Below are positions 1,545-49,431 of a DNA stretch of 64,000 nucleotides, piece after piece. Location: contig CAVQNT010000005.1 of the NCBI GenBank assembly GCA_963714275.1, positions 32,001 to 96,000 of the forward strand. Reading direction: 5' to 3'. Source of the DNA: Candidatus Bathyarchaeota archaeon (GTDB taxonomy: Archaea; Thermoproteota; Bathyarchaeia; Bathyarchaeales; DTEX01). A program made the translations under genes and the position numbers. The notes below the pieces were generated by a model that worked only from the letters and a program-made list of their open reading frames with translations, ran no database searches and had not been told where the DNA came from. How positions within the stretch are numbered: position 1 is the first letter of the stretch; each line of letters begins with the position of its first letter.

Positions 1545-2420
1545 TTGCATGTTAACATTCCAACTAAGCGTTGCCCAAGGCTTTCTGTAGCAGTTTCTGC
1601 GTCGATCGTTTCGGACGTTCCGCACCTGAGGGAGAAGACTTCAAAAATCGGTTTTGTCGGGCGGGCTTTAGCCATGTTCCGCGTGGACGAAGTCATAATT
1701 TTCTCCGATGCCTCAGCTCAAAGCCAAGCTCGGGACATTGAGCTCGTCGCCACTTTGCTGTCTTACCTGGAAACCCCGCAGTACCTTAGGAAACACCTTT
1801 TCAAGATTAAGCCTGAACTAAGTTACGGCGGGATTCTACCTCCCCTACGAACCCCCCACCACCCTCTACGGAACCACGAAAAAGACTTAATAGTCGGGGA
1901 ATGCCGTGAAGGCGTGGTAGTTTCCCGCAACAATAAAGGAATCTTTGTCGAGGTAGGCGTTGAACGACCCGTTATAATCCTCAACGAGAATGTTTCTTTG
2001 AATTCGCGGGTGACGGTTAGAATAATGGAGAAGGGCAAACACTTCAGAGGTCAACTGATTACGCCTGACGACGTAGACCGTTATTGGGGATACAAGGTAA
2101 CAGTCGCAAACAAACCATTAGGGCGCATGTTAAGAGACCAATCTTTTGACTTCGTTATTGCCACATCACGGCTTGGAGAACCCTTCATGAAGGTTGCGGA
2201 CAAAATACGGACCGAATGGGACAAGTCTAAGTGTGTCCTCGTCGCCTTCGGAGCGCCATCAAAAGGTCTTCACGAAATTGTGAAGCAGGAAAAACTTGAC
2301 CTTGCAGACCTGGTGGACTTTGTCGTGAACACGGTGCCGAACCAAGCGACCGAGACAGTGCGAACCGAAGAAGCCCTATACGCGACCCTTGCTGCCCTTA
2401 ATTTGTTGATGTCTTCTTGA
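1545..2420 (+). CDS. SPOUT-class RNA methyltransferase (DUF171/MTH1-like)
   Basis: YLETPQYLRK, GILPPLRTPHH and C-terminal PNQATETVRTEEA motifs. Confidence 0.9.
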   Translation: MHVNIPTKRCPRLSVAVSASIVSDVPHLREKTSKIGFVGRALAMFRVDEVIIFSDASAQSQARDIELVATLLSYLETPQYLRKHLFKIKPELSYGGILPPLRTPHHPLRNHEKDLIVGECREGVVVSRNNKGIFVEVGVERPVIILNENVSLNSRVTVRIMEKGKHFRGQLITPDDVDRYWGYKVTVANKPLGRMLRDQSFDFVIATSRLGEPFMKVADKIRTEWDKSKCVLVAFGAPSKGLHEIVKQEKLDLADLVDFVVNTVPNQATETVRTEEALYATLAALNLLMSS

Positions 2421-44183: not shown

Positions 44184-44277
44184 TGGTGCGGCCGCCGAGA
44201 TTTGAACCCGGGTTGTCGGCTGTCCTCTCTTCAGCAAATGGGAGGCCGGCGTCCTAACCAAACTAGACTACGGCCGC
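44184..44277 (-). tRNA. tRNA-Gly(CCC) with a 17-nt canonical intron (44222-44238); CCA encoded
   Basis: GCGGCCG acceptor stem, CCGGC-CT-CCC-A|intron|A-GCCGA anticodon arm, GGTTCAAAT T-loop, ends ACCA. Confidence 0.92.
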
Positions 44278-44509: not shown

Positions 44510-46334
44510 ATGTGTGGAATATTCGGTTGCGCGTTAAAGAACGGAAAGGCTGCTCCCCTAATTCATGCTGCCCTAAAAAGGCTCGAATACAGAGGATACG
44601 ACTCTGTCGGCGAAGCTACCATTCAAAATGGTGTTCTCTACATAAAGAAAGACCAAGGAAAAATTGACGATGTTCACAAAGCCATTGACTTAGACAACCT
44701 GCCAGGCAACATAGGAATCGGGCATACAAGATGGGCTACGCACGGAGCTCCCTACCAAGTTAATGCACATCCGCACACTGACTGCGAAAACAAGATCGCT
44801 GTTGTTCACAACGGCATAATTGAGAATTTCTCTGCATTAAGAAAGGAACTGGAAGGTTTAGGACACGAATTCAAGTCTAAGACTGACACCGAGGTTATCC
44901 CGCACCTTATTGAAGAAAACATGAAGAAGGGGATGTCACTCGTTGAAGCAGTCCGCGACTCATTGAAAAGGCTTAACGGTTCTTATGCCATTGCAGTCTT
45001 ATCAAACATTGAACCTGATAAGATTGTTGTCGCTAGAAACGAGAGCCCGCTTGTCATTGGCGTCGGTGAAGAAGCAACCTATTGTGCATCAGATATTACA
45101 GCTTTCCTTCCCCTGACAAACAGAACGGTGATACTCGAAAACGGCGAATTAGGCATACTAGAAGCTGACAAGTACGAGATTTGGAATATTGACGACTGGA
45201 AGCCAGTAAAAAGAGAACCGGAACAGGTTACTTGGACCGTGGAAATGGCTCAGAAGCAAGGTTATCCTCACTTTATGATTAAGGAGATTTATGAACAGCC
45301 AAGATGCTTGAGGGACACTCTTAGGCTGCAGGACTTGTACCTCGACCTTATGGCTACGTTTCTGGACCGAGCTGGAGAAGTGTTTCTCGGTAGCTGCAGG
45401 AACCTCTTATCATGCTTGCCTAGCGGCCTCGTACATGTTTTCAGATCTTGCTTTCTTGGCGACTCATCCAGTTATTGCGTCTGAGTTCATTGAACAGGAA
45501 GGGATGGCGATTAACATCAACAGCACAATCCTCGCTGTGAGCCAATCAGGCGAAACTGCTGATACGCTGGCTGCTGTGGATTATGCTCGAAACCGAGCTG
45601 CCACAATATTGGGATTGACGAACGCCGTTGGTTCAACTTTAACCAGAATCTCAAGAGTATACATAGTTCAGCAATCAGGTCCCGAGATCGGCGTCGCAGC
45701 GACAAAGACATTTACGTCTCAGATGTCAGTGCTTGCGCAACTCGCCTTAAGAGTCTCGAAGATTCGGGGCAAAATCGGGCACCGACAGATAGAGGAGCTT
45801 GAAAAAAGCGTCAGCCAGATTCCTGACATAGTTGAGGCAACGATCAAGAAAAACGAACCGAAGGTTCTAGAAGTTGTCAAGAAACTTAAGAAAAAGCCAG
45901 TCTTCTTCTTTCTAGGCAGGGGGATAAGCTCAGCGACAGCGCAAGAAGCCAGACTTAAGATCATGGAGATCGCCTACGTTCCCTCAATAGCCTATCCTGC
46001 GGGAGAAAGCAAGCATGGTCCCATAAGCCTTGTGGAACCTGGGTTTCCCGTGGTGTTCGTGTGTCCTAGGGATGAGACACGCAAGACGATAGTTGGGAAC
46101 ATAATGGAAATGAAGGCGCGGGGAGCCTCAATAATCTCCGTCATCGAAGAAGGAGATGAGGAAATCAAAAGCCTGTCAGACGAGTATTTCGAGATACCCG
46201 GAAGCCTGCCTGAAATACTGACGCCGATTGCCTTCATTGTACCCTTACAGCAGCTTGCCTATTACATGGCTGTGGAAAAAGGGTTAAACCCCGACATGCC
46301 GCGGAACCTCGCAAAATCCGTCACAGTAAAATGA
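44510..46334 (+). CDS. glmS: Glutamine--fructose-6-phosphate aminotransferase; frameshift ~45390
   Basis: MCGIFG, GHTRWATHG, SQSGETADT, PRNLAKSVTVK. Confidence 0.97.
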
Positions 46335-46505: not shown

Positions 46506-47213
46506 TTGAACAATCAGTGGGAAAACCTTATACAAGACCTCATAAGAAGTGGCATACTTAAAACTCCACAGGTCATCAAAGCGATGAAGTTGGTGCCAAG
46601 GTGCCTTTTTCTGTCCGAAAACGACAAGGCGTGCGCGGCTATTGATACTCCGCTTCCAATCAGCTCGGGGCAAACGGTTTCTGCGCCACTTGGCTGACCT
46701 TAAAGATCAGCTGGGCGAGACATGGTTTCGATAATGAACGAAGCCTTGGAGCTTGAGACTGGACATACTGTTCTGGAGGTCGGAACAGGTTGTGGATGGC
46801 ACGCTTCAACCGTCGCGGAGATCGTGGCGCCAAGCGACATGCCTAAAGAAAAATGGGGTCACGTTTACACAGTTGAAATTGTTTCAAAACTGGCTGAGTC
46901 CGCAAAAAACAATATTACCAAGACTGGTTACGGCGAACGGGTCACAGTTGTCTGCCAAGACGGTTCTGAAGGTTACCACGATAAGGCTCCGTTCGACAGG
47001 ATTTATGTGACTGCTGCTGCGCCTTATGTTCCTCCTCCGCTCAAGGATCAGCTAAAACAAGACGGCGTCATGGTTATTCCAGTGGGTGCGCCGGGATTCT
47101 TTCAGACTCTTCTTCGACTAAGGAAGGTTGAAGGTCAATTCTCAGAGGAAGATCTTGGAGGTGTAGCGTTTGTTCCCCTGGTTGGAAAGCACGGTCATAA
47201 ACTTTTGTGGTGA
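46506..47213 (+). CDS. pcm: Protein-L-isoaspartate O-methyltransferase, interrupted by a 30-nt BHB intron (join 46506..46689,46720..47213)
   Basis: VPR..F...DTPLPI..GQTVSAP|HMV, VLEVGTGCGW, APFDRIYVTAA, VAFVPLVG. Both halves are in the same frame, separated by a 30-nt insert containing stop codons. Confidence 0.92.
46690..46719 (+). other. Predicted archaeal bulge-helix-bulge intron in pcm mRNA
   Basis: 4-bp CGCC/GGCG helix, two 3-nt bulges (AC^U and AG^A), 7-bp intron stem; excision gives CCA-CAC-ATG (Pro-His-Met). Confidence 0.85.
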
Positions 47214-49320: not shown

Positions 49321-49431
49321 GCCGGGGTAGCCTAGCTTGGTTTGGGCGCCAGACTCATAATCTGGAGAACGCTTAGGGTCAGAAACAACCTTTGCGCCCA
49401 GAAGTCGCGGGTTCGAATCCCGCCTCCGGCA
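49321..49431 (+). tRNA. tRNA-Met(CAT), elongator type, with a 36-nt non-canonical intron at 45/46 (49368-49403); CCA not encoded
   Basis: GCCGGGG acceptor stem, CCAGA-CT-CAT-AA-TCTGG anticodon arm, GGTTCGAATCC T-arm; removing the intron gives the variable loop AGGTC. Confidence 0.9.

Follow-up and report, generated by a model that had tools for sequence, protein, structure and literature searches.

A conserved bulge-helix-bulge intron predicted at an invariant histidine codon of pcm in Bathyarchaeia

The window analysed here, i.e. the whole stretch of 64,000 nt, derives from the genome of a sediment archaeon of the class Bathyarchaeia (2.64 Mb in 10 contigs, 91% complete). On its plus strand lies pcm, the gene for protein-L-isoaspartate O-methyltransferase (PIMT), which appears in the list of open reading frames (ORFs) of the window as two separate ORFs in the same frame (Table 1). 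An earlier note on this DNA had described a 30-nt insert (46690-46719) that splits a His codon and carries an in-frame TGA and TAA, and the letters are as described: both stop codons (TGA at 46695-46697 and TAA at 46701-46703) stand in the frame of the upstream ORF.

The two pcm fragments together make up a complete member of the family. The N-terminal fragment matches model positions 3-59 of 210 of the Pfam family PCMT (PF01135) and the C-terminal fragment positions 61-209 of 210, so that the model is covered nearly end to end. Alignment to the solved PIMT of P. furiosus (1JG1) places exon 1 on residues 19-77 and exon 2 on residues 79-228, and the same one-residue picture across the break is obtained with a second PIMT from the PDB (2YXE). 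What is missing between the fragments, compared with the solved PIMTs, is thus exactly one residue, namely the His of the S-A-P-H-M motif. Joining the DNA in silico from after C46689 to after G46719 yields CCA-CAC-ATG (Pro-His-Met). At the break the pcm DNA of the window contains no contiguous His-Met codon pair, and therefore only a joining guided by the bulge-helix-bulge (BHB) motif described below recovers the His. The putative intron would accordingly interrupt an invariant motif, with its His codon split after the first letter (phase 1). We take S-A-P-H-M to be a motif with a catalytic role in PIMT; our literature search found no paper in support of that role, and the argument given here relies on the conservation of the motif instead. 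The start of exon 1 is likewise putative, being the first TTG after a stop.

Table 1. Coordinates of the pcm fragments, the elements of the predicted BHB motif and the comparable insert in cbf5
Feature	Position	Strand	Description
Upstream pcm ORF	46506-46697	+	63 aa, ending in GQTVSAPLG-stop; from the ORF list
Downstream pcm ORF	46722-47213	+	163 aa, starting with MVSIMNE; from the ORF list
pcm exon 1 (predicted)	46506-46689	+	From the putative TTG start to C46689 (first letter of the His codon); codes for ...GQTVSAP plus the C of CAC
pcm BHB intron (predicted)	46690-46719	+	30 nt, between the exons; same-site inserts in relatives
pcm exon 2 (predicted)	46720-47213	+	Last two letters (AC) of the His codon, followed by MVSIMNE... 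as far as the stop
Outer helix h, 5' side	46682-46683	+	UG; pairs with C46721 and A46722
Central helix H, 5' strand	46684-46687	+	CGCC, in exon 1; pairs with 46714-46717
5' bulge	46688-46690	+	A-C^U; predicted cut after C46689
Inner (intron) helix h', 5' arm	46691-46697	+	Pairs with 46707-46713; 7-bp stem
Inner helix loop	46698-46706	+	Between the arms of h'
Inner helix h', 3' arm	46707-46713	+	Pairs with 46691-46697
Central helix H, 3' strand	46714-46717	+	GGCG, in the intron; pairs with 46684-46687
3' bulge	46718-46720	+	A-G^A; predicted cut after G46719
Outer helix h, 3' side	46721-46722	+	CA; pairs with 46682-46683
cbf5 BHB insert (predicted)	G000 C2:624212-624239; L114 about 1790-1850	-	28 nt, splitting the catalytic Asp codon behind its first letter (phase 1)

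Many relatives of the organism carry an insert at the same site. A search of the same order with the 3' ORF covered 41 genomes, 38 of which gave a match, and in all 30 loci returned an insert of 28-40 nt separates S-A-P from M. Among the named Bathyarchaeia and Thermoproteota records (80 kept of the 170 relatives found) there are 74 with an insert (28-46 nt) and six without, and the latter read CCN-CAY-ATG. Pooling of 110 loci of Bathyarchaeia genomes gave 87 distinct junction sequences, in 81 of which a same-site insert is present (28-46 nt). Its length is not a multiple of three in 51 of the 81, reading through it meets a stop codon in each of the 81, and ATG follows it directly in every locus. 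Splicing in silico produces the codon CAC in 80 sequences and CAT in one, whereas the intron-less relatives read the predicted ligated junction, Pro-His-Met, directly from their DNA, in keeping with the claim of the earlier note that removal of the insert restores the motif. The invariant His is kept in all 41 intron-less sequences, and both exons are under strong conservation as protein (60-91% identity).

The junctions were aligned with MAFFT, and the gaps of this alignment are confined to the loop. The central helix is paired at all four positions in 80 of the 81 insert-bearing sequences (99.7% of cells), mostly as CGCC/GGCG (74 sequences), but also by way of the double change CACC/GGUG (4) or as a G-U variant (2), with a mismatch in one. 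The 5' bulge reads [A/U]-C^N and the 3' bulge A-N^A in every sequence. In the inner helix 87.4% of cells are paired, and changes on both sides of a pair were found in nine out of nine counted pairs (213 cells). Position-conserved inserts with compensatory changes, which the earlier note had proposed to look for by aligning related pcm loci, are thus found over 81 distinct sequences. The central helix also constrains the synonymous sites of exon 1: 73 of the 81 intron-bearing sequences have GCGCCA for Ala-Pro, the six intron-less ones use four spellings, and an exon with GCA goes with an intron that has GGUG. On these grounds we estimate a probability of about 0.88 that pcm carries a real and conserved 30-nt archaeal BHB mRNA intron; the splicing itself, the cut sites and the ligase involved we infer from sequence.

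Several observations weigh against this interpretation. The outer helix comprises only 1-2 bp, so that the motif does not appear to be a fully canonical hBHBh' and the word 'textbook', by which it had been described at first, is slightly generous, although all the pairings and bulges named at that time are present. Over the 81 sequences the outer G-C pair is kept in 80 (G-U in one) and the U-A pair in 31, and the letters concerned are also constrained by coding. Relaxed BHB motifs are said to need a hetero-oligomeric endonuclease (PMC2738675). In addition, a CA...AC repeat at the borders leaves the cut ambiguous by one or two positions as judged from the sequence alone, and it would be the BHB rule that fixes it, the cut by EndA falling between the second and third bulge residue according to the description in PMC2738675. 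Folding of the single sequence yields modest z-scores of the minimum free energy (-2.09 for 71 nt and -1.62 for 47 nt), for which reason it was dropped as proof of the BHB. The minimum free energy structure (-15.5 kcal/mol) pairs the 3' bulge with a UCU upstream and leaves no open bulge, the BHB conformer reaches -10.1 kcal/mol, and forcing only the bulges open gives -13.5 kcal/mol. Moreover, the pcm site ranks fifth by energy among the 315 candidates of at most 70 nt found in a genome-wide scan for BHB geometry bridging two ORFs, which implies that BHB-like geometry alone is common. The comparative numbers need care as well: 88.2% of cells are paired in the named structure versus 74.2% in column shuffles, and although none of 500 shuffles reached the observed value, the sequences are related, so that the shuffle statistics overstate independence and the count is not a probability. 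The control with slid registers (only 22-42% of cells paired) and the number of pair types per alignment column (up to six) are not affected by kinship. Among the sequencing runs listed as containing the pcm locus none is of RNA, and two RNA runs gave no cover of it, which is evidence neither way. Finally, the regions compared across the class and the phylum (see below) were picked by the length of their open frames. Taken together, we regard the folding of a single sequence as weak evidence for the BHB, and the comparative evidence, which goes far beyond chance, as decisive.

One of the other explanations is a split gene that functions without splicing, in which a 63-aa N-terminal piece and a 163-aa C-terminal piece starting at ATG 46722 would assemble into an active enzyme, and in which the conserved hairpin would be there to couple translation or to stabilise the transcript. 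It would account for the ATG that directly follows the insert in every locus, it is compatible with the RNA runs, and public gene calls indeed treat the 3' ORF as a protein in its own right. The earlier note had anticipated that gene callers would report fragments, and the best 120 of 2759 public hits to the 3' ORF are all 158-172 aa long; they are named 'protein-L-isoaspartate O-methyltransferase', '..., partial' or 'methyltransferase domain-containing protein'. Yet the Met in question belongs to the universal S-A-P-H-M and is therefore no sign of an internal start, and the His that no intron-less sequence lacks would be encoded by neither piece. The N-terminal pieces would, moreover, finish in variable junk residues, and the geometry of 3 nt, 4 bp and 3 nt would be purposeless, as would the in-frame restoration of CAY in 81 of 81 sequences. 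We consider a split gene very improbable.

An equally small chance is given to the possibility that the sites are processed by a nuclease or ligase other than EndA and RtcB, or that the RNA is cut without re-ligation as a means to shut pcm off. The assignment to EndA and RtcB follows from likeness of the motif and presence of the genes, and the outer helix is weak; nevertheless, EndA substrates are defined by just this geometry, and it is found again in cbf5, for which EndA-dependent cleavage is reported in Crenarchaeota (PMC2738675). That the reading frame is restored exactly speaks for ligation and against cutting alone. Even less credit is due to a programmed translational bypass, i.e. a ribosome hop with the hairpin as take-off signal, of the type known from phage T4 gene 60 and defined by matching take-off and landing codons. 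Such a hop would fit the stop codon soon after the break and the stable stem-loop within the gap, but matching take-off and landing codons are lacking, the absence of a contiguous in-frame His codon before the ATG means that a hop cannot yield His-Met, and the length of the insert varies from ~21 to ~58 nt while the bulge-helix-bulge register stays. A pseudogene or an assembly artefact may be regarded as refuted for practical purposes by the comparative loci, since the insert recurs in independent assemblies of many studies, including DNA contigs of two studies, and both exons are strongly conserved, despite the 1-nt frameshifts that occur elsewhere in the assembly (in cbf5, ilvC and a Sua5-like gene). 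A group I or group II intron, with a ribozyme core that measures hundreds of bases, and an intein, with a protein-splicing domain in frame, were ruled out given the insert size of 21-58 nt, the stop codons and a length that is often not a multiple of three. Besides two tRNAs, no Rfam family scored in the window.

The BHB intron proposed for pcm extends beyond the order of the window genome. A search across the class took in 301 genomes and gave a match in 264. By the length of the open frame that surrounds the 3' ORF, the matches fall into two groups, one of ~160-200 aa and one of at least 224 aa. Of 20 regions in other orders, picked by this length so that the fraction is not a frequency, nine have the same-site insert and 11 read an unbroken S-A-P-H-M. 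The nine comprise five inserts of 21-25 nt in one family (f35), three of up to ~58 nt in a second (f20), one of which has CACC/GGUG, and one in a third (f26), and over all orders examined the insert spans ~21 to ~58 nt with the register of the motif kept. Outside the class, within the same phylum (151 genomes searched, 107 with a match), 12 regions were picked in the same manner, with the same limit on the fractions: the insert is present in six out of six from family f46 and three out of three from family f57, and absent in the three others. Predicted splicing restores the His codon in these other orders and families too. The nine insert-bearing genomes of f46 and f57 are G378, G329, G399, G357, G371, G364, G406, G392 and G385 (L135-L143), and one of the out-of-class introns combines a 10-bp inner stem with a central helix CACC/GGUG.

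A tree of 103 distinct pcm proteins (81 with and 22 without the insert), made with FastTree, requires a minimum of seven changes of state, and its well-supported branches force at least two. Together with the distribution, the seven changes imply an old intron that was precisely lost, or gained, on repeated occasions. DNA contigs of two metagenome studies have the insert as well, with no intron-less joint among them. The same metagenomes hold other Bathyarchaeia contigs whose pcm exons match those of the window and whose introns differ (with loose ends at window 46709-46713), so that several intron variants coexist in one sample. A degenerate probe for the predicted junction retrieved 21 metagenome contigs that read GCG-CCA-CAC-ATG, with at most ~77% nucleotide identity to the 110 loci (81.5% for one piece of 65 nt). 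They were rejected as spliced transcripts, being distant intron-less alleles of other lineages; in our reading they show the predicted ligated sequence to exist as a normal gene and are no evidence of splicing.

A second gene of the same genome appears to be interrupted in a comparable way. In a TruB_N search, cbf5 was matched only from model position 17 onward, in an open frame of 114 aa, and its insert (Table 1) has CCUU/AAGG as its helix, with the bulges AG^A and AU^A, and GACC/GGUC as its inner stem. At the same site, 27 out of 30 cbf5 genes from the order have an insert of 18-40 nt, and three are intron-less. The helix is fully paired in 24 of the 27 (variants CCUU/AAGG, CUCU/AGAG and CCCU/GGGG), and splicing in silico restores Asp-Pro in all 27, with Lys as the next codon in 25 and Asn or His in two. 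The site is the one described for Desulfurococcales and Sulfolobales, and in the literature searched we found no report of this crenarchaeal intron site in Bathyarchaeia. Elsewhere in the cbf5 of the window genome (L114 about 1480-1500) there is a single-base frameshift, at a place where the frame of the relatives is open.

The earlier note had also suggested scanning split genes genome-wide for BHB junctions. A strict scan for BHB motifs that bridge ORFs gave 958 candidates in the window genome (315 of at most 70 nt), nine of which were translated, and only pcm was convincing. In a relaxed scan 101 candidates came up, with cbf5 among them, while pcm was lost at the cut-off on the codon score. 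Three other candidates were rejected as mRNA introns: a URO-D-like one from the strict scan (G000 C2:198911-199848) is a probable frameshift, and two top hits of the relaxed scan, ilvC-like (G000 C2:715892-715955) and Sua5/TsaC-like (G000 C2:161070-161094), are 1-nt frameshifts in real coding sequence. Applied to this assembly, the method is poor both in sensitivity and in specificity, and therefore yields no intron count. The 1-nt frameshifts in conserved genes are most likely indel errors of the assembly, and as a consequence ORF-based inferences in it need care.

The genome encodes what the proposed reaction would need. Profile searches identified two genes with the catalytic domain of tRNA-intron endonuclease (PF01974; 98.4 and 76.2 bits), i.e. 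EndA paralogues, and one gene for RtcB (PF01139; 592 bits). The two paralogues belong to the ORFs at G000 C6:521817-522071 and C2:182722-182976, and RtcB is encoded at C2:545063-546373. The best PDB matches of both paralogues are crenarchaeal EndA chains. The paralogue of 185 aa is closest to the A. pernix chain 3P1Z_B (E-value 2.6e-42) and keeps the His in ...GIDHAP..., whereas in the one of 189 aa Ala-Asp stands in place of the His-Ser of its best PDB match. The pair fits a catalytic and a structural subunit, as in crenarchaeal heterotetramers; this assignment, and the meaning of the conserved Lys of the 'crenarchaeal loop' that we aligned here, are in part our assumption. Introns were called by ARAGORN in 12 of the 39 tRNA genes.

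In the mechanism that we propose, CGCC of exon 1 would pair with GGCG of the intron in the pre-mRNA, which would create a 4-bp helix, two 3-nt bulges and a 7-bp stem on the intron side. The cuts, after C46689 and after G46719, would be made by the splicing endonuclease, in which the two EndA paralogues probably join as a heterotetramer, and RtcB would ligate the exons to CCA-CAC-AUG and probably circularise the 30-mer. Translation of the mature mRNA would then lead to a PIMT of ~225 aa, and unspliced RNA would give only a stub of 63 aa and perhaps an N-truncated piece that lacks the His.

With respect to function, the intron could be used for regulation, could protect its site, or could be a tolerated passenger. 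We lean to the passenger because the intron has been lost precisely several times, and such repeated and precise loss suggests that it is dispensable; a regulatory role is possible. A wider idea, which we would ourselves bet against, holds that Bathyarchaeia and neighbours have a small set of ancient, position-conserved BHB introns in phase 1 of catalytic or invariant codons of housekeeping enzymes (pcm, cbf5 and probably more), and that the shared placement stems from mechanism and not from chance. The mechanism could be either a spread in which the introns reverse-splice into conserved, structured sites of mRNAs and are then reverse-transcribed, or a checkpoint that ties the output of protein repair and RNA modification to the EndA/RtcB axis of RNA repair.

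The nearest known relative of the pcm intron is the BHB intron in the pre-mRNA of crenarchaeal cbf5, which was reportedly found by Watanabe in 2002. In that gene the intron lies between the first letter and the second of the catalytic Asp codon (Yokobori 2009, PMC2738675), i.e. in the same phase, so that the parallel with cbf5 drawn in the earlier note is apt. On the account given in that paper, the likeness covers a short phase-1 intron within the coding sequence, at a codon whose residue is essential and belongs to a conserved motif, a BHB-like structure in which the cut falls between the second and third bulge residue, hosts with a hetero-oligomeric EndA, and a patchy distribution with losses (PMC2738675). 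The two differ in the enzyme encoded (an RNA pseudouridine synthase versus a protein-repair methyltransferase) and in lineage (Crenarchaeota versus Bathyarchaeia and neighbours). The central helix and both bulges of pcm are regular, whereas most cbf5 motifs are called unconventional, and the splicing of cbf5 has been demonstrated by cDNA and in vitro cleavage (PMC2738675), whereas for pcm it is predicted.

Archaeal pre-tRNA and pre-rRNA introns share with that of pcm the structural motif, the size range and the predicted enzymes. The RNA that hosts the pcm intron is, in contrast, a messenger, in which the exon bases of the motif double as codons, and this is why they become visible as constrained synonymous sites. 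In eukaryotes, the splicing of XBP1/HAC1 mRNA by IRE1 and RtcB is stress-regulated by design. It resembles the case of pcm in that a short mRNA intron is removed at stem-loops by proteins only and without a spliceosome, with ligation of the RtcB type and a change of the reading frame, and it differs in nuclease and motif, while stress regulation belongs to the IRE1 system. The endonuclease of the euryarchaeon Haloferax volcanii is of the homodimeric type. Its mRNA HVO_1309 has a BHB intron in the 5' untranslated region (UTR) and is, as predicted for pcm, a messenger substrate of the tRNA splicing endonuclease; unlike in pcm, the intron lies in the untranslated leader and breaks no reading frame (PMC7714728).

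In what that 2020 paper on the Haloferax endonuclease says of such cases, cbf5 is the only archaeal one within a coding sequence, next to the one in a 5' UTR (PMC7714728), and the terms searched in a 2026 review of non-canonical splicing returned neither cbf5 nor an archaeal mRNA intron. Likewise, no pcm or isoaspartyl intron and no BHB introns in mRNAs of Bathyarchaeia were found in the openly readable full-text articles searched. BHB introns in archaeal mRNA are thus already known as a kind and the host gene pcm is new. As judged from the comparative sequences, pcm would be the second protein-coding gene family known with a tRNA-type intron, kept in ~100 related genomes, the only precedent in the searched literature being cbf5.

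For more than 20 years cbf5 has been cited as the sole archaeal protein-coding gene with a tRNA-type intron, and with a second host gene the enzyme-dependent splicing of archaeal mRNA would no longer be the oddity of a single gene. The class across which the predicted pcm intron is conserved is uncultured and abundant worldwide, and the intron occupies the same codon phase of an invariant residue as that of cbf5; the pcm loci are a natural source of covariation data on the BHB motif where it lies in coding sequence, and pose the question how such introns are gained and precisely lost. While the interest may be mostly that of specialists in archaeal RNA processing, there is a practical use for annotation. 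Public annotations of pcm in Bathyarchaeia, and probably of cbf5, hold truncated proteins, which introduces slight errors into the alignments of protein families and the metabolic reconstructions made for this group, and archaeal gene callers should test BHB junctions.

Some minor observations concern the surroundings of pcm. The gene region is flanked by two tRNA genes, at 44184-44277 (minus strand, 94 nt) and 49321-49431 (plus strand, 111 nt), both longer than a mature tRNA and hence intron-bearing; the second was found by Rfam and missed by ARAGORN. ARAGORN also calls a tRNA-Ile(GAT) with a 685-nt intron on the minus strand (G000 C5:31360-32137), which reaches into the window (~1-137) and may be either a false call or an unusually large intron. 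Just upstream of pcm, the ORF at 45435-46334 (plus strand) encodes two SIS domains, like the C-terminal half of GlmS, and has no glutaminase domain in its frame of 299 aa; it may have been cut at the N-terminus by a frameshift, or may be a stand-alone SIS protein.

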